Assembly (NCBI RefSeq): GCF_003991155.1
Contig: NZ_CP031293.1
Origin: Escherichia coli
Lineage (GTDB): Bacteria; Pseudomonadota; Gammaproteobacteria; Enterobacterales; Enterobacteriaceae
Direction: 5' to 3' (one strand)
Length of the DNA stretch: 64,000 bases
Made by a program: the position numbers and the translations under genes. Shown here in pieces: positions 13,183-60,590 of this stretch (position 1 is the first letter of the stretch; each line of letters starts with the position of its first letter). The notes beneath the pieces are model-generated. The model saw nothing but the letters and a program-made list of their open reading frames with translations. It was not told the DNA's origin and did no database searches.

Positions 13183-13266
13183 TTAATTTCGATTATTTTT
13201 CCCGGATGGAAAATTCTTAGAAACCGATCACATACAGCTGCATTTATTAAGGTTATCATCCGTTTC

Positions 13267-13353
13267 GCTGAAAAACATAACCCATAAAATGCTAGCTGTA
13301 CCAGGAACCACCTCCTTAGCCTGTGTAATCTCCCTTACACGGGCTTATTTTTT
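13267..13353 (+). ncRNA. cyaR: CyaR (RyeE) Hfq-dependent sRNA
   Basis: 87-nt sequence GCTGAAAAACATAACCCATAAAATGCTAGCTGTACCAGGAACCACCTCCTTAGCCTGTGTAATCTCCCTTACACGGGCTTATTTTTT matches my memory of CyaR, including the terminal hairpin and U-run. Confidence 0.85.
13327..13353 (-). other. Phage P2-type attB core overlapping the cyaR terminator
   Basis: Reverse complement reads AAAAAATAAGCCCGTGTAAGGGAGATT, which I recall as the P2 att core; no prophage genes follow. Confidence 0.55.
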
Positions 13354-27905: not shown

Positions 27906-28706
27906 TCACCACCAGGCGTGGAAGTGGTGAACCGGACCAATACCGTGACCAACTTCCAGCGTGTCGGCCTGGGCTAACGCCGATGAAAGCCAGCTTTTTG
28001 CCTCCTGTACGGTGTCAGCCCAGTTTGTATGGCGCGGGCGCAGTGCAGCCAACGCCGCAGAGAGCGTACAACCAGTGCCGTGAGTGTTTTTGGTCATAAT
28101 GCGCGGTGCGGTAAACCGTTGTTCACCCTCGCGGGTAAACAGCCAGTCCGGGCTTTGCTCATCATCCAGATGACCACCTTTCATTAGCACTGCGCCACAG
28201 CCCATCGCCAACAGCGATCGCCCTTGTTCCAGCATTTCCTGTTCGGTGCGCGCGTGTGGCGCGTCGAGCAAGGCGGCTGCTTCGGGCAAGTTTGGCGTTA
28301 TTAATGAAACATGTGGCAATAATCGACTGCGTAGCGTGGCAACTGCCGAAGGTGAAAGCAGCGGGTCGCCGCTTTTTGCCAGCATAACGGTGTCGAGTAC
28401 CACGTTTTGGATCTGATAACGTTGCAACCGTTCTGCCACCGCTTCAACAATATCGGTTTCCGCCAACATACCGATTTTAGTGGTGTCGATTCGCACATCA
28501 CTGAACACCGAATCGAGCTGGGCGGCGACAAAATCAGGCTCAATGCGATACACCGACTGTACGCCACGGGTATTTTGCGCCACCAGTGCAGTAATCACTG
28601 AGCAACCATAAGCGCCAAGTGCCGAGAAGGTTTTAAGATCGGCCTGAATCCCCGCACCACCACTCGGATCAGTACCGGCAATCGTCAGAGCGTTAATTCG
28701 TTTCAT
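27906..28706 (-). CDS. thiD: Hydroxymethylpyrimidine/phosphomethylpyrimidine kinase
   Basis: 266-aa ORF, ThiD sequence. Confidence 0.9.
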   Translation of the reverse strand: MKRINALTIAGTDPSGGAGIQADLKTFSALGAYGCSVITALVAQNTRGVQSVYRIEPDFVAAQLDSVFSDVRIDTTKIGMLAETDIVEAVAERLQRYQIQNVVLDTVMLAKSGDPLLSPSAVATLRSRLLPHVSLITPNLPEAAALLDAPHARTEQEMLEQGRSLLAMGCGAVLMKGGHLDDEQSPDWLFTREGEQRFTAPRIMTKNTHGTGCTLSAALAALRPRHTNWADTVQEAKSWLSSALAQADTLEVGHGIGPVHHFHAWW

Positions 28707-28729: not shown

Positions 28730-29491
28730 TCAGAGCGCATCAAGGAAATGTGGAACAAAACTGCCTGGCCCCTCGCTTCTGGCAACTGCGCGTTCTCCGG
28801 CTTGTTTCATCCAGTGACAGGCAGATGCGATATTTTCCAGCGTATCGCCTGGTAGCGCACAACAGGCAGCGACAACCGCCGATAATGCACAGCCAGTTCC
28901 TACCACTTTGGTCATTAGCGGATCGCCACCGTGAATGCCAACGATACGATGTCCATCGGTAACATAATCCACCTCGCCAGTGACCACGACGATTGCGCCA
29001 GTTTCCCGTGCCAGTGTTTGTGCAGCAGGTATCGCGTTAGCTGCGGCATCAGTGGTATCCACTCCCCGTCCGCCATTAGCAACGCCAGCTAATGCCATGA
29101 TTTCCGAAGCATTACCACGTATGGCGGTTGGCTTATGAGACAGAAGTTCCAGACAAAAACGGCGGCGATAATCGAGTGCACCCACCGCTACTGGATCAAG
29201 CGTCCAGGGTGTTTGAGAGCGTTTTGCCTGTTCAACGGCGGCACGCATCGCCTGTGCGCGTGGCTGCGTCAGCGTGCCAACGTTAATCAGCAACGCACTG
29301 GCGATTGCCGCAAACTGACTGGCCTCTTCGGTTTCGATGACCATCGCTGGCGATGCACCGAGCGCCAGTAAGGTATTGGCAGTAAAGGTTTGCACCACAT
29401 CATTGGTCATACAGTGCACAAGGGGGGAATGTTTGTGAAAAAGATGTAACGCGTGCGCAGATTGCGCGGAACTCAGCAGGTCGACTTGCAT
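28730..29491 (-). CDS. thiM: Hydroxyethylthiazole kinase ThiM; C-terminus ends early at an in-frame TGA
   Basis: 253-aa ORF; the TGA at 28730-28732 is followed in frame by QLTQEVQA and a second TGA that overlaps the thiD ATG. Confidence 0.9.
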
Positions 29492-29625
29492 AGTTTGCTC
29501 CTGCCATAACGTGAAGAAGCAATGACCTGGTGGTCCGTGACTTCCCTACGCTGGCATTATCCAGATCAGGTGATACGGGTATTTCTCAGCCTTCACGCAG
29601 AAGGGCACCCCGAGTCGTTTGGTTG
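29492..29625 (-). promoter_or_regulatory. TPP riboswitch (thi-box) leader of thiMD
   Basis: Minus-strand leader reads AACCAAACGACTCGGGGTGCCCTTCTGCGTGAAGGCTGAGAAATACCCGTATCACCTGATCTGGATAATGCCAGCGTAGGG, the thiM aptamer as I recall it, followed by the expression platform up to the thiM ATG. Confidence 0.85.
29544..29625. repeat. 82-bp direct repeat, left copy (attL-like); lies within the thiM riboswitch aptamer
   Basis: Perfect 82/82 identity with 37276..37357. Confidence 0.9.
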
Positions 29626-29837
29626 AATCTCTATATTTTGTGCCAGCTTAGGGGAAGTGGCTTGCAGATGCAAGCTCGCCTCCATTAATTGCTTCTTCTC
29701 TGTGTACCCCATTTTGTACCCCATATCAGAAATGAAAAAGAAACATTTAACATCTATCATTCAGATGATAAAAACTATTGATTATCTTAATTTGCTAATT
29801 TATATTATTTATCTAAATTTGATAGGTGAGATAAAAA

Positions 29838-30077
29838 ATGACAGAAACCCAGATCTACGAGAACATTAAGCAAGCCATTAGCAGCGCACCACGAAATAGC
29901 CAAACGATGGAAATGCACCTCCAGATGATCAAATATGCTGACCATCTGAAAAAGGTTACGGCAAAAGAGTTTTGTGAAGGTGTAGGACTTAAAGCCAGCT
30001 TTGGTACAGAGTTCAGCAAAATGAGAAATCTTACCGAGCGACTCAAAGCTGCTGGACTTGACACCACGAAGTTATAA
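29838..30077 (+). CDS. Hypothetical small protein (island)
   Basis: 79-aa ORF with SD-like GGTGAG upstream; no recognised motif. Confidence 0.4.
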   Translation: MTETQIYENIKQAISSAPRNSQTMEMHLQMIKYADHLKKVTAKEFCEGVGLKASFGTEFSKMRNLTERLKAAGLDTTKL

Positions 30078-30242
30078 AAAACAAATCATCAATATATTAT
30101 TTTTGTTTTCCAGACTTACTTGCATATGTTTCTACGAGCATAAAAAACAACAACCACCACATAGCTATTACCATAATAATGTTTTCCTTTTATATTAAAC
30201 AGAGAAATAGAATTAGAGCGTGGAATAGATGAATTCTATTTT

Positions 30243-30488
30243 CTATAACTTCTTGAGGTTGAATGTAGAAAAAGACAGCTCTTTCATTTCAATAACACCG
30301 AAATTTGATAGCTGTTTCAGCCAGAATTTTAAACCTGACTCAGAGCAACCTGCTCGATGTAACACATCGCTATATTTTAGCGGTGTTGGCTTTCCTTTAT
30401 AGAGGTAAACAAGCGTTTCGTAGGTGTGTTTTCCGGTGTCGTTACACTGAATGCGGTCTACTTGATTTTTTACTAAATATTGGATCAT
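30243..30488 (-). CDS. Hypothetical small protein, possible winged-helix (island)
   Basis: 81-aa ORF with AAGGAGG upstream, directly after the 239-aa gene stop. Confidence 0.45.
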   Translation of the reverse strand: MIQYLVKNQVDRIQCNDTGKHTYETLVYLYKGKPTPLKYSDVLHRAGCSESGLKFWLKQLSNFGVIEMKELSFSTFNLKKL

Positions 30489-30499
30489 AGTCCTCCTTA

Positions 30500-31219
30500 T
30501 TAAAATGGAATGTCAAAATCGTCCTCTTCTGTCTCAGGTATCGTGTATATATGTTCTCTTCCTGTAAATTCAGAAACCACTATTGAAATTAGCCTGTATG
30601 CCTCTATTTTATCGCCCTGCGTTTCAGCTAAAGCCCACTCAAGGGCTGCTTCTGTTGGCTGTCCATTCGGTTTGCAAATAGTGACACCGCCCCAAGGAAG
30701 CTCTGTTTTTTCCTGCTGAATAGAGCGTGTTGTTTCTAGTGTTTTTTTATCTTCCGTAGGGGGAAGCTGTTCAGGAACAGCTTTAACAGTAGATACTTGC
30801 TCTGTCTGTGGCTTTTCTGCATTTACAGAGGCTTTCGCTTCTCTTGGTGCTGTAATATGTGCATCTGTAAAGGGTAATGCTTTATAGAGTGATGTTTGAC
30901 CGTGGCGTGCCTCTACAGAAAGAACTCCCATATCAACAAACATATTTATAATATTGCGTACCTGACGATCACTAACCATTCCAATATTAGCTAATGTTTT
31001 TTGAGTAGCGTAACATTCTTGCCCTTGTTCATTGAATCCAGCTATATAGCTATAGATTTCAACGGCTGGCAGTGTAGCGGTGTATTCATTACCAGATGGT
31101 GAGTACCATTTTTTAAACATCTTCAACCATTGCTCAACAACTACATATTTTTGTTTACCATCTTTCTGATTTAGACATTTGGCTTTCGCTTCGGCAATTG
31201 TTTTGATATTTTTGATCAT
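30500..31219 (-). CDS. Putative replication-initiator-like DNA-binding protein with SSB-like acidic C-terminal tip (…EEDDFDIPF)
   Basis: 239-aa ORF with strong AAGGAGG SD; N-terminal wHTH-like segment, P/E/K/T-rich linker, C-terminus DDFDIPF. Confidence 0.6.
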   Translation of the reverse strand: MIKNIKTIAEAKAKCLNQKDGKQKYVVVEQWLKMFKKWYSPSGNEYTATLPAVEIYSYIAGFNEQGQECYATQKTLANIGMVSDRQVRNIINMFVDMGVLSVEARHGQTSLYKALPFTDAHITAPREAKASVNAEKPQTEQVSTVKAVPEQLPPTEDKKTLETTRSIQQEKTELPWGGVTICKPNGQPTEAALEWALAETQGDKIEAYRLISIVVSEFTGREHIYTIPETEEDDFDIPF

Positions 31220-31343
31220 TTAGTTCCTCCTTTGTAAGGACTGTAATTAGTAGTTCATTAACAAGTTTTGGAATTGATTTCCCTTCTGCCTTTGCGCGAT
31301 TTAACAACGCGTTATAAGTTGCAGAGTCAAAATTAATATTCAT
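31155..31343 (-). CDS. Ribbon-helix-helix (CopG/Arc-like) small DNA-binding protein
   Basis: Start at MNINFDSATYNALLNRAKAEGKS with GGAGAGGAGA SD; overlaps start of the Rep-like gene. Confidence 0.55.
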   Translation of the reverse strand: MNINFDSATYNALLNRAKAEGKSIPKLVNELLITVLTKEELNDQKYQNNCRSESQMSKSERW

Positions 31344-31365
31344 TTGGTTTTCTCCTCTCCTGTTA

Positions 31366-31548
31366 TTATTCTTTCTCTGCTTCTGCCTTACGCAGTTCAT
31401 CAATAATCTTGAGTGCATCGTCAAAGCATTTTTCACGCTCTGGATAACCTCGACTCCTTGCCATATTACGATTCATTACTACTTGATGTCGTGTTAACTC
31501 ACCTTTTTTAAATGCCTCTACGACGTGTTCCGGTATAAACCATTTCAT
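31366..31548 (-). CDS. Hypothetical 60-aa protein, first gene of the island's minus-strand operon
   Basis: ATG preceded by AAGGAG at optimal spacing; basic/acidic helical sequence. Confidence 0.5.
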   Translation of the reverse strand: MKWFIPEHVVEAFKKGELTRHQVVMNRNMARSRGYPEREKCFDDALKIIDELRKAEAEKE

Positions 31549-32323
31549 AAAAAACTCCTTATTCAGTTAAAAGAAAAACACCTTGCAAGCCTGACGGCTT
31601 CAAAGTGCATTGATTTTGATTATTTAGAGAAGAATGTTTTTCTGTCCCTCTAGTACCTATTATTACATATAAATAAACATTTGTCAATATCTTTTCATAA
31701 AAAATCAGAACCTTTTCATGCACTTACATTTTTTCTTAGCGATTCGTGCTCTCCTGTGTAGTGCTATTCTTCATTACCAGCTAAAACGCTCTAAAACGCG
31801 TTCTAACGAAGTTTTGATAAAAGCAATACATTCTCTTATGTAATGGCTGTTTAGCTCGCCAGAGGCTTATTTAAGTGGCTTATTTTGTATTTGTTAGATG
31901 ATGATAGATATAAAACAGAGAGTTCTTAGATTAGTTACTTTATAAAACGCTCTGTAAAGCCCTGTAGTGAGTTTATATATGTAGGCAAAGCGGTTTCCAT
32001 TCTCTACCCTGCTTAATGCTGTTAGAGAAGCATTTAGACCCCTTATTTTTAATTACCTAAAGTATCCTCTATACATCTCTGTTATGAAACACCTCTGAAT
32101 CCTTCATAAAACACATTATGACGCAAAGAACACTTTTCTAAGGTGATTCCCTTCCTGAACTCTGTTTCTTGCGTCAGAGAGCTACACAGAGAGCTTATAA
32201 AGCTATTATTAATAATAAAGTAGATAAAGTAAGTAAGATAAGTAAGAAGATTAACTAAGATAGATAAGATTAATAAGATCAGAATTCTCTTTCGGTGTCG
32301 CCTCTGGCTTTTCCACCGAAAAC

Positions 32324-33019
32324 AATTACACGACTACAGAATGTAGGAAGTGAAATTGTATTGAGGCTTAGTGAAATTACACGAGGAAAGCAGAGTGTAA
32401 TTGAGCTTTAGCCGCTCTCTCTTCGAGTAATTACACAACTACAGAGAATAACAGAGTTATTAAATGTAGGAGGGTAATTAAGAGTTAGAGAGAGTTAACA
32501 CGTAAGCAATCAGATGATTGGTTAGGTGATTACTCTTACTGCGCACAGCGCAATAGTATTCCTTCGTGGGCGTTACCGCCAACGATAGTTACACGAAGAA
32601 AGTAACGCTTTGCTTTCGGTGTGAGCGGAACGGGCCAGCCACAAAGCCCGAAAGGTAGCGGAGTAAGGCTGCTTGCCAGAGAGTGGAGCTAACGCCGGAA
32701 GGCAAAAGATCATATATATAGTATAAAGAATATTATTTAATTATAGTATTGGTGGAACTCATTACCTAAGGTAAACCGGAGACCACTTCCAACGGTTAGG
32801 CAACCACTTCCAATTGTGTTATTTCCCCTTTTACCCTAAGTAAATTTTAGCCTTTCGTTACATCCATTTATCACATAGCACTTACCCTGTGTAAATCATA
32901 GAATAATGCTCTCTATTCCCTGTGTAATTCCATACTAAAAAATTCAATGAAAAGTAGTTTAAAAGTGCAATGTTAGCTTTCTTCACTTTTACATCACTTT
33001 CGCTGCGCCTTGTGTAATG
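32324..33019. repeat. Iteron-like repeat cluster (AATTACAC core, both orientations) in a 1.75-kb non-coding region
   Basis: AATTACACGACTACAGA at ~32324 and AATTACACAACTACAGA at ~32429; shorter copies at ~32375 and inverted at ~32396, ~32885, ~32918, ~33008. Confidence 0.6.
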
Positions 33020-33312
33020 CGGCTTACAGAGCACTATCAGAAATTATTGATCAAAAATCAACCTATTATTTGTCGAACAAGTTTTCTTTAATGCAACAAA
33101 AATTATTTTTTCAAAATAAACACACAATTTAATAGCTTGCTAATTTTACCAAAATGTAACTACATGATTCTCATGCAAGAAGTGTAGTGATAAGGCAGGC
33201 TAAATCACCACACTAAAAAACTTCGAATTTCGTAGTGAAAAAAGTACTTTACACACCTAATCAACACGCCCAATAATCACTACACACAAATCAATACAGA
33301 AGAAAAAAGAAG

Positions 33313-33864
33313 ATGGCTAATATTGGATACATTAGGGTATCGACTGTGCAACAAAACACAGACCGTCAATTAGCAGGAGTAACTCTTGATAAAGTCTTTG
33401 AAGATAAAGCGTCAGGCAAGAACACTCAGCGCCCACAGTTTGAGGCAATGATGAACTATGTGCGGGAGGGTGACGTGTTACACGTCCATAGTATTGATCG
33501 CCTTTGTCGTAATACAGCCGACCTTCTGGCAACTGTAGAGCAATTAACAAAGCGCGGCGTGTCTGTGCATTTCCATAAAGAAGACTTTAAGACAGGAAAG
33601 AACTCTCCCGCAGGGAATATGATGCTCACAGTTCTTGCAGCAGTGGCACAAATGGAACGTGAAATGATGCTTGAGCGTCAACGTGAAGGGATCGCCGCAG
33701 CCAAGGCCGCTGGACGTATAGCAAAACGTGGTAATGGAAAAGCAATTGATCGAGCGGGAATTGCTGCCGCTCTCGCGAATGGTGGCTCAATTCGGAGCGT
33801 AGCAAAAGATTTCAGTGTCAGCACGCAGACGGTGCAACGTATCAAGAAAGAGCAGGTGGCGTAA
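33313..33864 (+). CDS. Small serine recombinase (resolvase/invertase family)
   Basis: 183 aa; N-terminal catalytic motif IGYIRVSTVQQNTDRQ with the nucleophilic Ser; C-terminal HTH. Confidence 0.85.
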   Translation: MANIGYIRVSTVQQNTDRQLAGVTLDKVFEDKASGKNTQRPQFEAMMNYVREGDVLHVHSIDRLCRNTADLLATVEQLTKRGVSVHFHKEDFKTGKNSPAGNMMLTVLAAVAQMEREMMLERQREGIAAAKAAGRIAKRGNGKAIDRAGIAAALANGGSIRSVAKDFSVSTQTVQRIKKEQVA

Positions 33865-34030
33865 TGCCTCCTTGATATTTGACAGGGACGGTCGGCAAAA
33901 ATCGGGGCTTGCTGATCTCAGCGTTGAGCGGTTCTTGCAATGGTGCCTAGGTGCTCGCTTGTATTCCCCTTCGATAATCACCACTAAGCCACTTATTGCC
34001 TTGTGGAGTGGCCCGAAAATTACTGATATC

Positions 34031-34531
34031 TTATTGATTCAGTCGATCCCATTTAACCGCAGATACAATTCCCCAATTACCACTAGCATTAGGCCTACGC
34101 CACTTCGCGGTTTCCATTCCACGAAGGTATTCGAGAGCTTCATTGAACGAACTGAAACGTTTCTGGGCTGATTTTTCCCCTACTCTAAACGAACCATCGC
34201 GAGTACTTGCCAATCCTGGATGAAAACACGACCCATCTGCAGCATAAGGAACAAGTACCTCCTGATCATCAGGTTTCCTTGAATCAGAAGCCAGTAACTG
34301 CCAAGGCTCAATACGCAAAGCGTCAGCCAGAACCTCAATTGCATCAAGAGATGCATTAGAGCAACCACGCTCAATTCGACTCATATAACTACGTGCAAAA
34401 CCACACCGATCTGCAAAGGCCTCTTGGCTTAAGCCAATAGCTATACGGAACTCTTTTACTCGTTGTCCAAAAAGGTATCTCAGATTCTTTCGCATGGCAC
34501 AAAGATGCAATTTGACGCACCAATTAACCAC
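34031..34531 (-). CDS. XRE-family HTH regulator with uncharacterised C-terminal domain
   Basis: Cro/C1-type HTH (GLSQEAFADRCGFARSYMSRIERG); likely start at internal Met (34495). Confidence 0.7.
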   Translation of the reverse strand: MVNWCVKLHLCAMRKNLRYLFGQRVKEFRIAIGLSQEAFADRCGFARSYMSRIERGCSNASLDAIEVLADALRIEPWQLLASDSRKPDDQEVLVPYAADGSCFHPGLASTRDGSFRVGEKSAQKRFSSFNEALEYLRGMETAKWRRPNASGNWGIVSAVKWDRLNQ

Positions 34532-34605
34532 GCACTAATCGTGACATTTTGAATCAATCATGTATTATTAGCATCACCATCCATTTGACACACCAAGGGA
34601 GACAA

Positions 34606-34953
34606 ATGAAAAAACTAGTATTTGCCGCTTTGTTAATTCCAGTGATGGGCCACGCCACAACCTTTTCCTGTAAAGCAATACAGGAAGGTCATATTGACTC
34701 GGGAAGTCAGAAAGTTTCTGTAGATTCAACTTTTGATATACAAGATAAAAAAATGACCATAAATCTTGGCGGTAAAACTTGGAGACTTGATTTGGTAGGT
34801 CAAAAAAGCATCGCAAAGATGTATGCTACACCTGACGGAGGGGTTGCAGCCACATACATTGACAATGGCAGTATACCGATATTTGTATTACGCCCTTCTA
34901 ATCCCGATGGGGAGATGGCTGTTTACACATTGAGTATGTGTTCTGAAGTATGA
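34606..34953 (+). CDS. Small secreted protein of unknown function
   Basis: Start at MKKLVFAALLIPVMGHA (signal peptide) with AAGGGAGA SD; divergent from the XRE gene. Confidence 0.6.
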   Translation: MKKLVFAALLIPVMGHATTFSCKAIQEGHIDSGSQKVSVDSTFDIQDKKMTINLGGKTWRLDLVGQKSIAKMYATPDGGVAATYIDNGSIPIFVLRPSNPDGEMAVYTLSMCSEV

Positions 34954-35030
34954 TTGATCGGCGTGATATTCACGCCGTTTTTGGGGAAATTTGTATATTG
35001 AAAAATATAGAAATAGAACTTTTATCAAGC

Positions 35031-35756
35031 CTATTTATTAACAGGTAGTAATGTCAGATCGCCATAATGGGCTTGTCTATGGCAATTAGGACATAATGCA
35101 ATAGCATTTTCCACAGAGTCCTCCCCCCCCTTTGAAAGCCACTCAATATGATGAACTTCTAGAAATGGAGTACCATCTTCCTTTAGAAAAGGAGCATCTC
35201 GCTTACAATATTGACATTTTCCATTTGCACTCAAAAGAACTTCAGCAACTACATATGGGCTTCGTTTATAAACTCGTGTTGTTACTTCGATTAGTTCCGG
35301 GATTTTACTTTCTGTCGCTAAAATTTGCTTTCGTTCCACTGAAGATAATTTTGCAGCCGTCTCAACAGCTTCTTCGAAAACCGATTTTACTTGACGATAA
35401 CGCCACATCCCTTCTAAATCCTGGTATAATTCCCAAATACCGTGCACAGATGGTTGATAGATTTCAAAAATATTTCCACGCTTGAACAATCGGTCATACT
35501 TATGATGCCGATGAGTTACATCATCAGTTCGTCGGGCAGTTTTGTTGAAACTCCAGTAGCTCCGCTTACAATTAACTGTATTAGCAATTAAATTGAGCCA
35601 AGTATTATCTTTATAAGATGGAAATAGCTTTCTAAGATAATCATCTACCTGCTTAGCCGTTGCAGCCCCACCAAACTGATTAGCAATTATCTGTATGGTA
35701 ATAGCTCTTATCGGTTGATCGCCATACTTGTATTTTTTGCCTAAATTTTTAACCAT
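35031..35756 (-). CDS. HNH endonuclease, McrA-like C-terminal nuclease domain with distinct N-terminal domain
   Basis: C-terminal CQYC...EVHHIEWLSKGG...NAIALCPNCHRQAHY zinc-finger HNH motif, similar to what I recall of E. coli McrA; ~150-aa N-terminal region unrecognised. Confidence 0.75.
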   Translation of the reverse strand: MVKNLGKKYKYGDQPIRAITIQIIANQFGGAATAKQVDDYLRKLFPSYKDNTWLNLIANTVNCKRSYWSFNKTARRTDDVTHRHHKYDRLFKRGNIFEIYQPSVHGIWELYQDLEGMWRYRQVKSVFEEAVETAAKLSSVERKQILATESKIPELIEVTTRVYKRSPYVVAEVLLSANGKCQYCKRDAPFLKEDGTPFLEVHHIEWLSKGGEDSVENAIALCPNCHRQAHYGDLTLLPVNK

Positions 35757-35884
35757 AGAAGACTCACTAAGCCTAAATTCATCTTAAGTTATTATTGTAA
35801 ATTAGTTGTGAAAATTTTTGATCTCAGACAATAAAAATCTACAAATTATTAGCTGGTTATACACTAAGAAGGATACACGAATAA

Positions 35885-37222
35885 CTAAGTCTCCCAACAA
35901 AGACCATCGATCACATAACAAACGGTGGAAAGTGGGAATGTGTGCAGATAACGCTGGGTAATCCCTACTCCACTCTTTTCATGACCTACCACCTGTTGCA
36001 GATGCGCCAAATTACTCACCCAACCAGCTAAACAAGTAGAAATCATAGTATGCCGGAAACTATGCACCAAGCGCCGCTGCCCATAATCATCAAGATAAGG
36101 AATATCAAGCTGATCACGAACATCTGAAAGAACTTTACCTATCTTTGACATATTTCGACCTGAGACTTCCGAAAAGATTTTCTCTTTCCATTGGCGGTTA
36201 ACAAAATCCAGAAACCCCCACTCAATCAGTTTGGGATGAATCACTACCTGTCTTGTAGCATTCTCAGTTTTACCCAGCCTTCTTTCCGCGATCAGAAGAT
36301 AGTGCCGCTGGCTATCTTCATCAAATTTGATCTGCGACTTCTCCAGTTTAGCAATCTCACCTCTTCTGGCTCCTGTGTACGCCAACAACAAAGTGATCCA
36401 CTTCTGCCATCCATCAGGCTGCTTTAGTGCCCATCCTACAAATTTTTTCATTTCTGCTGCACTGTATGCACCAAACCTAGCTTTGGATGGTGCCGCTACT
36501 ATTCCATCAGTCGGAGACTTAGATAGAATATCTTTGTTTTCAGTCAGAAATGTTTTGAATAACGATTTGTAGATTTTAAGGTGCTTATGTACAGCCTCAG
36601 CACCAACTAAATCCTCTGGCAGCACATCATCACATTCGATTAGTTGCTGAATAGTCATTGACCTATACGGTTGCACTACACGCTTTGGTAAGTTTTCGAC
36701 AGTTTCCATTACTCGCTTAATATCTTGTTTGGTGATTGCCGTTACGTCTGTTTCTTTTCCCAAGACAACAAGCAATACCTCCATATAACGCTCATTTGCC
36801 ATTGAGATCGATTTTGTCCAATTTCGACCTCTTTCCTCCTTGTACATAGCCCACGCATCAGCAAGTGTTAGCACCTTTTCCGGTTTGGCTGGTGGTTGAA
36901 GCTGCAAAACTTCTTTAGAAATATTGTTCAATTGCTGAGGGAGTGGCAACGGAATCATTACGTTACGTGACGAAGCGATCAAGTTTGAAACAAACTTATT
37001 AAATTGTGGCAACGGAGTAGCGAGTGATTTAACGAAAGGAATGTGCGGAGTAAGGCCAATCATCAACGCCGATGCTTCGCGATAACTGTCAGTAAAAAGT
37101 GATTTTTTGTATATCCGACCATCCGAAAGCCGGATTTGTAGATAGTAATTACCGTTTCGCTGAAATGTGTATGGGAGAGTTCTTGACCTCATAAACGCCC
37201 CCTTTTTGTACCTTAACAGCAT
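35885..37222 (-). CDS. Tyrosine site-specific integrase
   Basis: 445 aa; C-terminal catalytic region with HSFRHT and GITQRYLH; starts 53 bp from the right direct repeat. Confidence 0.85.
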   Translation of the reverse strand: MLLRYKKGAFMRSRTLPYTFQRNGNYYLQIRLSDGRIYKKSLFTDSYREASALMIGLTPHIPFVKSLATPLPQFNKFVSNLIASSRNVMIPLPLPQQLNNISKEVLQLQPPAKPEKVLTLADAWAMYKEERGRNWTKSISMANERYMEVLLVVLGKETDVTAITKQDIKRVMETVENLPKRVVQPYRSMTIQQLIECDDVLPEDLVGAEAVHKHLKIYKSLFKTFLTENKDILSKSPTDGIVAAPSKARFGAYSAAEMKKFVGWALKQPDGWQKWITLLLAYTGARRGEIAKLEKSQIKFDEDSQRHYLLIAERRLGKTENATRQVVIHPKLIEWGFLDFVNRQWKEKIFSEVSGRNMSKIGKVLSDVRDQLDIPYLDDYGQRRLVHSFRHTMISTCLAGWVSNLAHLQQVVGHEKSGVGITQRYLHTFPLSTVCYVIDGLCWET

Positions 37223-37275
37223 GATTTATGGTCAAAAAGAGATACAACCACATAATTTTCAAGACTATTTTGGCC

Positions 37276-37357
37276 CCCTACGCTGGCATTATCCAGATCA
37301 GGTGATACGGGTATTTCTCAGCCTTCACGCAGAAGGGCACCCCGAGTCGTTTGGTTG
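37276..37357. repeat. 82-bp direct repeat, right copy (attR-like); duplicate of the thiM aptamer segment
   Basis: Identical to 29544..29625; followed by native sequence leading into rcnR. Confidence 0.9.
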
Positions 37358-37445
37358 CGATGATAAATCGCAAAGGAGGATGGTAATGTCCAGCGCACGC
37401 GTTGTAAACGAGGAAAAACGGCAGTTTTACAATCGCGTTAATAAA

Positions 37446-37718
37446 TTATTTGATATATGAATCCAGCACCTTCAGAACGACATCCAGATCTTCTTCACGT
37501 TTTAGCTCATCCCCCTGGTGAACGATGTGTTCCGTCAGATGACCTTTAATCACTTCCCGCATCAGACCGTTTACCGCGCCACGGATAGCAGCAATCTGTT
37601 GTAAAACTGCAGCGCATTCGTGCGGCTCGTCGAGCATTTTCTTGAGCGCCACGACCTGGCCCTGAATCTTACTGGCACGCGCTTTCAGTTTCTGTTTATC
37701 ACGGATGGTATGAGACAT
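37446..37718 (-). CDS. rcnR: Ni/Co-responsive repressor RcnR
   Basis: 90-aa ORF, CsoR/RcnR family; divergent from rcnA. Confidence 0.9.
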
Positions 37719-37838: not shown

Positions 37839-38648
<810 letters not shown>

Positions 38649-60384: not shown

Positions 60385-60469
60385 TATAATTCGTTCGTTG
60401 GAACACGATGTTGCACAGGCTGCGGCGTTGGGCCTGAAAATAGTAAATAAAAGAACCTGCCTCACCAGC
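60385..60469 (+). ncRNA. orzO: Putative OrzO-like antisense sRNA antitoxin (boundaries uncertain)
   Basis: Plus-strand CACGATGTTGCAC can pair with the zorO 5' UTR (same 13-mer at ~60237); ends in hairpin ACCTGC-CTCACCA-GCAGGT plus T7. Confidence 0.4.
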
Positions 60470-60590
60470 AGGTTTTTTTATTTACTGTGATCTGCTTTCC
60501 AGATATTTTCCGCTCAAACAACTAATGCGCCAAACATTTATTGCGCGTAAAATATCGTTTATTTCATTAATACATTTCAGGGATGAATAT

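Follow-up and report, generated by a model that had tools for sequence, protein, structure and literature searches.

In ICEclc, an outward-facing promoter, Pcirc, located at the end opposite the integrase gene (int) is said to drive int only after circularisation, and the islands that insert into dusA reportedly replace the displaced 5' part of their target. Islands of tRNA and tmRNA genes (Islander/TIGER class; PMC4383910, PMC7192596) have a tyrosine integrase at one end, repeats that derive from an island-borne part of the target, a regenerated target and a precise empty site, and all of these features recur in the island described herein. In the present study, we analyzed a window of 64,000 nucleotides (nt) from Escherichia coli (assembly GCF_003991155.1, contig NZ_CP031293.1), in which an island is inserted between rcnR and the thiMD operon, within the thiamine pyrophosphate (TPP) riboswitch of the thiM leader. 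It is very probable that this site-specific island rebuilds the riboswitch and promoter of thiMD and leaves the host thiM promoter, together with a fragment of the aptamer, in front of its own integrase gene. A TPP riboswitch is already catalogued as an island target: in the supplement to TIGER, the entries Eco824.15.TPP_RNA and Kox2.11.TPP_RNA are listed. The supplement of Hochhauser et al. (2023; PMC10121019) contains an 'rcnR-thiM' locus of 7,956 bp with 8 genes and a type IV restriction system. This locus appears to be the same island, with its HNH gene scored as the type IV restriction system; in those supplement rows it is listed as a non-hotspot with the mobile-element type 'None', and the riboswitch, the repeat and the promoter swap are absent from them. 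In the literature searched for a thiM or TPP-riboswitch attachment site, no description of a promoter or aptamer exchange was found, and the site occurred in supplementary catalogue entries only.

The insertion can be delimited precisely. A perfect direct repeat of 82 nt (100% identity) was observed at 29544-29625 and 37276-37357, and on the minus strand both copies match the Rfam TPP model (RF00059) at or above its gathering threshold of 54.3 bits, the thiM-side copy (as 29526-29622) with 71.2 bits and the int-side copy (as 37259-37354) with 61.3 bits; both copies are also labelled as riboswitches by RefSeq/PGAP in identical islands. The thiM-proximal copy extends from the P1 5' strand through the P4 3' strand of the aptamer and, judged by the geometry of the integrase family, would be supplied by the island; together with 29526-29543 it makes up a complete TPP aptamer. 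The int-proximal copy is a host-derived aptamer fragment that has neither the P1 3' strand nor the expression platform. Between the two copies lies the island itself (29626-37275), 7,650 bp in length, with a GC content of 0.39 compared with 0.49 in the flanks. When the island was removed in silico by joining 37358-37475 to 29625 onward, 248 of 249 nt of the product were identical to the rcnR-thiM intergenic region of K-12. The sole single-nucleotide polymorphism (SNP) is at 37373, the mapped +1 of the thiM promoter, which is C in K-12 and in strain EC20-72C-1 and T here. Because excision rebuilds the K-12 empty site, 37358-37445 represents the DNA that originally preceded thiM, and the insertion of the island was precise. 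On the host side, the attachment site is flanked by rcnR (37446-37718, minus strand; open reading frame (ORF) and PGAP). The insertion site was matched in 5,424 of the 5,426 complete E. coli genomes, the majority of which have the empty form.

These results bear out three proposals of the first-pass annotation of this DNA. The exchange of 5' contexts upon integration is correct, and the same layout is found throughout the integrase family; the assignment of 37358-37445 as native thiM upstream DNA agrees with the empty site rebuilt over 249 nt with one SNP; and the position of island DNA directly upstream of the thiM aptamer, from 29626, agrees with both the base composition and the result of the excision. 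The probability that the repeat arose by chance or through a homologous-recombination duplication unrelated to site-specific integration is practically negligible, given a perfect repeat of this length, an integrase at its boundary, a precise empty site, and the same geometry with a fixed boundary in many genera.

The geometry of recombination was revealed through the relatives of the integrase. In a scan using one genome per species, relatives with 64-84% identity were found in at least 15 Enterobacterales genera, and the target is the thiM leader in every Enterobacterales locus examined. At 21 loci (Lelliottia and Rahnella counted), a TPP aptamer fragment with the orientation of int precedes the int start by approximately 130 nt, and in the loci that extend far enough, a second, complete aptamer followed by thiM is located 3.6-12.8 kb downstream. 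The 3' end of the identity between copies is invariant, GCCAGCGTAG, in all of the loci with two or more copies (10/10); this sequence is followed by GG in the int-leader type of the present window and by nothing in the other types. The exact 5' extent of the identity varies from 16 to 70 nt among nine two-copy loci, and the block common to the copies, ACCTGATCTGGATAATGCCAGCGTAG, corresponds to the aptamer's P4-P5 arm. Strain EC20-72C-1 of E. coli has an entirely native copy on the int side, whereas the 5' half of its thiM-side copy is foreign (UCUUCAUGACUCGGGGUGCCCCAUCAAUGAUGGGCUGAGAA), with a compensated P3 stem in place of the native one. Taken together, the fixed 3' boundary, the variable 5' extent and a chimeric copy with intact thiM-side helices indicate that the element has a leader sequence of its own in its attachment site, on the 5' side of the crossover.

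The sites that the integrase might recognise were also considered. In the other int-leader types, an inverted repeat, TCTGGATAATGCCA ... TGGC(G/A)ATTAT(C/T)CA, brackets GCGTAG and looks like a core-type integrase site, and such repeats were not convincing around GCGTAG in the int-leader type of this window. GGTACA repeats at 29703, 29715 and 37207 are candidate arm sites; the first two, which read TGTACC at 29703-29720 (plus strand), might be the arm-type sites of the P arm, and conserved GGGGTACA repeats are found in related island ends. Two points weigh against the proposed geometry. First, the position of the crossover would follow from the boundaries of sequence identity only, and the core-type repeats around GCGTAG are clear only in the other int-leader types. 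Second, the distribution of aptamer variants between the copies in Pantoea ananatis (L021) needs an extra recombination event. As a separate observation, three GCCAGCGTAG anchors occur in L026 (at 9904, 13304 and 20551), and at the L007, L008, L012 and L026 junctions the int-side aptamer is preceded by the island-end promoter motif and not by the host promoter, an arrangement suggestive of tandemly inserted thiM islands or of junctions resembling those in an excised circle.

On the thiM side, the riboswitch is restored in full. The host-derived 3' part of the thiM leader (29492-29543, minus strand) contributes the P1 3' strand (GGGAAGUCA, 29546-29538, which straddles the repeat boundary) and the expression platform that sequesters the Shine-Dalgarno (SD) sequence and the AUG, and between the repeat and the AUG the sequence does not differ from that of the K-12 leader, which has been studied experimentally (PMC5499598). 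Among the 14 thiM-side copies of the family, P1, P2, P4 and P5 were all kept, P1 with 5/5 pairs in every copy (14/14), and three P3 pairs were changed on both sides; the thiM-side copies of the relatives score 72-78 bits against the Rfam TPP model. The riboswitch mechanism in front of thiMD itself would be unchanged.

What has changed is the promoter. In MG1655, the distance from the thiM transcription start to the start codon is 150 nt (RegulonDB v10.5, as tabulated in PMC10469882 Table S5), and in the numbering of Bastet et al. (2017; PMC5499598) the SD guanine is G142 and the U of the AUG is U152. Both numberings agree in placing the equivalent of the K-12 +1 at 37373, that is, 16 nt upstream of the repeat and outside it. 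The native thiM promoter (37380-37408, minus strand) is a sigma-70-like TTTACA-17-TACCAT with the -35 hexamer TTTACA at 37408-37403, a 17-nt spacer and the -10 hexamer TACCAT at 37385-37380, the last base of which is 7 nt upstream of 37373, and a TTTACA-17-TAYCNT architecture is also observed upstream of thiM leaders in other genera. The first 19 nt of the leader (37355-37373, minus strand) are predicted to form a 5'-terminal hairpin, UUGCGAUUUAUCAUCGCAA, across the boundary between native DNA and repeat. The repeat had been thought to begin where the thiM leader begins (AACCAAACGACUC), an assignment that is off by 16 nt, because the leader starts at the equivalent of 37373. Despite this error, the consequence drawn from it holds. 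The thiM start is not contained within the repeat, and since the K-12 start lies outside, the native promoter is wholly outside the repeat as well and now faces int.

At the opposite end of the island, a different promoter region stands before the thiM aptamer. This outward-facing region (29626-29692, minus strand) comprises a -35 hexamer TTGCAT (29673-29668), a 17-nt spacer and a -10 hexamer TAAGCT (29650-29645), with 28 nt from TAAGCT to GACUC. The same motif, TTGCNN-17-TAA(G/T)CT with a spacer of 16 in one case, was found 28-29 nt before GACTCGGGG in 13 instances from at least 8 genera, and a second island-end type carries a promoter and a 5' hairpin resembling those of native thiM promoters (TTTACA-17-TACTAT). 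Evidence for its use is provided by the O157:H7 strain EDL933, in which a 2.3-kb remnant of the island persists between thiM and rcnR (L005, 2947141-2949546) with an ORF of 79 amino acids (aa) and two other ORFs. EDL933 is without int, the second aptamer copy and the native promoter, and beyond the rcnR stop codon the shared sequence amounts to only approximately 12 nt. The remnant and the window differ by one SNP and no indel over the 95 nt that precede the aptamer. The EDL933 thiM starts determined using Cappable-seq are 137, 148 and 201 nt upstream of the start codon (PMC10469882); these starts correspond to 29628, 29639 and 29692, all in island-derived DNA, and the 148-nt start is 6 nt downstream of TAAGCT. 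The first-pass suggestion that thiMD expression may depend on an island promoter is therefore well supported by the K-12 start outside the repeat, the conserved motif and the EDL933 starts. Two further observations concern the same strains. The transcription-start study of enterohaemorrhagic E. coli (EHEC) scores the thiM start as conserved with that of K-12, at 148 compared with 150 nt (PMC10469882), and the DNA upstream of these two starts is not homologous. Another O157:H7-type genome (L003) also has a 2.3-kb remnant and has lost the native thiM promoter.

Several points weigh against the use of this promoter. Promoter prediction at both junctions, a check proposed with the first-pass annotation, recovered the native TTTACA-17-TACCAT, whereas the island promoter fell below the 9/12 threshold of the scan, its -35 and -10 hexamers being weak (3/6 consensus positions each). 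Its use in the present window would be an extrapolation from the EDL933 remnant, which has one SNP in the spacer; in other words, the transcript evidence comes from K-12 (empty site) and EDL933 (remnant), and the island promoter is presumed active in this strain by analogy with them. In addition, island genes on the minus strand (31548-30243) are oriented towards thiM, and read-through from them could add to thiMD transcription. Indeed, thiMD might be transcribed mainly by read-through from these genes, the replication-initiator operon, and not from the junction promoter, as would fit their orientation, the weak junction hexamers and the lack of any terminator-like site predicted in 29400-30000. 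Yet the EDL933 remnant has no upstream minus-strand island genes and nevertheless shows capped 5' ends at the three positions given above, the promoter elements (-35, spacer and -10) and their distance from the aptamer have been conserved among genera, and a plus-strand ORF (29838-30077) with promoter-like sites of its own lies in between. We therefore consider read-through unlikely to be the main source of thiMD transcripts. A sigma-54 promoter with TGGCAC at 29644-29639 was also considered and dropped, as the downstream TTGC element is absent.

The counterpart of this exchange is found at the integrase. The tyrosine integrase gene (35885-37192, minus strand; Pfam PF00589, 4e-6; phrog_1 integrase, 1.2e-26; PGAP) encodes 435 aa, and its start, first read as 37222, is most likely the ATG at 37192, in agreement with the PGAP call, a strong SD sequence upstream and the family alignment. 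The island-specific int leader (37193-37275, minus strand; P' arm side) contains the GGTACA motif at 37207-37212 (plus strand) and the SD sequence GGGGG, and has no P1 3' strand and no sigma-70 match of at least 9/12. Because neither a terminator-like site nor another sigma-70 match of at least 9/12 was found on the minus strand between 37408 and the int ATG, transcription of int from the displaced thiM promoter is plausible and constitutes the simplest reading of this arrangement. An intrinsic terminator between the aptamer copy and int, or at the thiM junction, was sought and none was predicted, and a dedicated sigma-70 int promoter in 37193-37275 was rejected at the same threshold.

Nevertheless, int might have its own promoter in the 83-nt leader (P' arm), and transcription from the thiM promoter might not reach int, e.g. 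owing to Rho termination in the 181-nt untranslated leader, in which case the swap would matter for thiMD only. Autoregulation from promoters overlapping the arm sites is known for many integrases. Within each int-leader type, the leader sequence is conserved, relatives of the type in this window carry TTGACT-17-TAATGC, and Rho has been shown to act on untranslated thiM mRNA (Bastet et al. 2017; PMC5499598). On the other hand, besides the results of the promoter and terminator scans described above, the candidate -10 hexamers do not have the conserved T at the last position, and the conservation of the leader is equally explained by the function of an attachment-site arm, given the GGTACA motif. 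An own promoter of int thus appears possible but doubtful, and we retain the displaced thiM promoter as the more plausible source of int transcripts in the integrated state.

It had further been proposed that int is preceded by a TPP-binding aptamer that lacks the native expression platform. The platform is indeed absent; the designation 'TPP-binding' is overstated, as P1 has about 2/5 pairs and the corresponding copies in relatives are often below the Rfam threshold. The int-side repeat runs as far as GCGUAGGG, immediately short of the P1 3' strand, and the int leader supplies 2/5 P1 pairs when placed in the native geometry. The mean is 2.1/5 in 23 int-side copies, compared with the complete pairing of the thiM-side copies, and the closing P1 helix is not formed in the int-proximal copy. 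The complementarity of the 90-nt int leader to the P1 5' strand is no greater than that of shuffled sequence. Two candidates for a replacement P1 in the int leader, AGUC located 9 nt further downstream and UGGUUG complementary to CAACCA, were rejected, since neither is conserved in relatives and their complementarity is not above shuffles.

These results bear on the possibility that the int-proximal copy is a working TPP sensor that makes the integrase responsive to thiamine status. Such a role would be consistent with the score of this copy, which is above the Rfam threshold, with the presence of P2, P3, P4 and P5 within the repeat and in the predicted minimum-free-energy fold of the int leader, and with the conservation of the arrangement across the integrase family, in which the int-side copies of L012, L013, L021 and L024 score 54.9-61.9 bits. 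However, in addition to the missing P1 3' strand, the int-side copies of four relatives (L014, L025, L026 and L016) are below the threshold, with P4 weakened in that int-leader type, and in the predicted fold the int SD sequence pairs with the coding sequence independently of the aptamer. Moreover, the attachment-site geometry fully explains the fragment. A sensor of this kind is therefore very unlikely, and control of int by thiamine is correspondingly improbable. Because the fragment owes its presence before int to the position and geometry of the attachment site, it is a by-product of that position and not a dedicated sensor. In the family alignment of int leaders, no conserved switching element is visible. 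Separately, the int-side copy of Lelliottia (L006 9840-9936) has CTGGGGGATGCCAG in the P5 loop region, where CTGGATAATGCCAG is invariant elsewhere, a difference that fits relaxed constraint on the copies beside int.

Herein, we propose a mechanism to describe how a site-specific island could take over the 5' region of a riboswitch-controlled operon. First, the chromosomal attachment site of this integrase family would be the 3' part of the thiM TPP aptamer, the conserved P4-P5 arm with the common block defined above. The attachment site of the island would be composed, 5' of the crossover, of an outward-facing promoter followed by the island's own 5' part of the thiM leader (P1 5' strand through P4) and, 3' of the crossover, of the int leader and int. 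Second, strand exchange would take place at or next to GCGTAG(GG). A complete riboswitch would thereby be assembled before thiMD from the island promoter, the 5' part of the aptamer from the island, and the P1 3' strand and expression platform of the host, while the host thiM promoter, the 5' hairpin and a P1-less aptamer fragment would be left directly upstream of int. Third, thiMD would be transcribed from the island promoter with a start at approximately 29639, so that the length of the 5' untranslated region would be nearly native. In the integrated state, int would most likely be fed by the displaced thiM promoter, and in an excised circle or in tandem arrays it would be fed by the island's own surrogate promoter. 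Of these steps, the position of the crossover, the activity of the island promoter in this strain and the transcription of int from the thiM promoter are those that we infer. It is conceivable that the placement of int behind the thiM promoter and a P1-less aptamer represents functional wiring, such that int, and with it excision or re-integration, would follow thiamine status or the activity of the thiM promoter in the integrated state and would switch to the surrogate promoter in the circle, although we hold this to be quite improbable.

Among the 5,426 complete E. coli genomes, the island was found with a coverage of at least 80% in 80, and the int-side junction was found in 191 E. coli genomes, including a 12.8-kb relative with different cargo. 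Island DNA adjoins the thiM aptamer in roughly 560-700 of the 5,426 complete genomes (~10-13%), an estimate read from evenly spaced rows of a ranked BLAST hit list. From the thiM side, the island encodes the 79-aa ORF (29838-30077, plus strand; PGAP 'HTH-like domain-containing', phrog_30666), where HTH denotes helix-turn-helix, which is kept at the island end in relatives and in the O157:H7 remnant; a replication initiator (O-like/DnaD-like; 30500-31219, minus strand), transcribed towards thiM; a serine recombinase/DNA invertase (33313-33864, plus strand; PGAP, PHROGs); a cI-like/control-protein HTH regulator (34031-34495, minus strand; PGAP, PHROGs); an HNH endonuclease (35031-35756, minus strand), which matches the PADLOC model of a type IV methyl-directed restriction enzyme (1.9e-23); the integrase; and several further small ORFs. 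Phage-inducible chromosomal islands (phage satellites) combine an integrase, a repressor and a replication module with genes that divert the packaging of a helper phage; here, a PHROGs search of the island proteins returned the integrase, the cI-like HTH regulator and the O-like initiator, and no capsid, terminase or packaging-related family.

Some other characteristics of the locus were also observed. The HNH gene probably underlies the 'RM_type_IV' entry that Hochhauser et al. (2023) give for 'rcnR-thiM', and in one related island it is replaced by an AIPR (abortive infection) gene; the island family may ferry defence cargo. An AT-rich stretch of 1.7 kb in the island (31550-33310) contains no ORF longer than 54 aa and no annotated gene, with loose TTACAC(G/A)A repeats at 32324, 32377, 32429 and 32589. 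This stretch is possibly a replication origin beside the O-like initiator gene, or it consists of decayed genes, and a similar unannotated gap is present in the related 12.8-kb island. Downstream of the riboswitch, the thiM ORF (28730-29491, minus strand) is cut short by a premature stop at codon 254 and encodes 253 aa, compared with 262 aa in other strains, and thiD (27906-28706, minus strand; ORF, and PGAP at an identical locus) is the second gene of the thiMD operon; its product, ThiD, has an established function in de novo synthesis. The stop, W254*, is at 28730-28732, and the codon specifies Trp in NZ_AP017617, a strain with the same island. In the present window, 24 nt separate the end of thiM from the thiD ATG, whereas PGAP annotates the two genes as overlapping in that other strain. 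The premature stop could affect the translational coupling of thiM and thiD, or it could be a sequencing error. On the other side of the island, a run of 12-nt GCACGAGCACGA-type repeats encoding a histidine-rich loop is found in rcnA (38186-38257), the length of which varies among strains (810-852 nt in annotated loci). Elsewhere in the window, Rfam matches were obtained for the small RNA CyaR (13265-13350, 100.7 bits) and the OrzO-P antitoxin RNA (60404-60479, 102.8 bits).

These findings have several implications. In island carriers, thiMD, an operon needed for thiamine synthesis, would be expressed from a promoter gained by horizontal transfer, with a chimeric riboswitch as well in some strains. 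The carriers of island DNA include the O157:H7-type genomes that were examined (EDL933 and further sampled ones), in which the native promoter has been lost. For comparisons of transcription starts, the thiM starts of EHEC and K-12 provide an example of a score of conservation assigned to non-homologous DNA. The TPP riboswitch is used as a model and as a drug target, and strains differ in the promoter that precedes it and sometimes in half of the aptamer. For riboswitch engineering, the chimeric copies are of interest as naturally occurring cases of exchangeable aptamer halves, and the 26-nt site recognised by the integrase family is conserved across Enterobacterales and could be useful for targeted insertion.

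In comparison with known systems, the thiM islands share individual features with several classes of element. The dusA-specific integrase islands, as described in Farrugia et al. (2015; PMC4482086), similarly integrate into the 5' end of a host transcription unit; their target, however, is the dusA coding sequence, whereas the thiM islands enter an untranslated leader at a riboswitch aptamer and give rise to a chimeric functional RNA. As with Pcirc of ICEclc, a putative outward promoter is located at the int-distal end and int would see different promoters in the integrated and circular forms. Unlike Pcirc, the promoter of the thiM islands is also directed at the host, where it would drive thiMD upon integration, and the integrated int stands behind a host promoter. 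More distant relatives of the integrase in marine Gammaproteobacteria (29-33% aa identity) are associated with rnpB, and there int likewise follows a structured-RNA target, in the same orientation and at a distance of approximately 90-180 nt. In five of these loci (L029, L031, L033, L034 and L036), a complete RNase P RNA gene is present, which matches the Rfam model over its full length with 295-339 bits, and GGTACA repeats lie beside the int start in the two loci inspected (L029 and L034). The integrase lineage appears to specialise in structured-RNA targets. In the rnpB-associated loci, the int-side copy of the target is complete, which corresponds to the classical arrangement with the 3' end supplied by the element. 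The same holds for the tRNA and tmRNA islands, in which the element supplies the 3' end of the RNA gene and the complete gene stands beside int. In contrast, the thiM islands supply a promoter and the 5' part of a cis-regulatory RNA, with the complete copy at the far end and the broken copy on the side of int, and thus extend the rule of target regeneration to a promoter and most (five-sixths) of a riboswitch aptamer.

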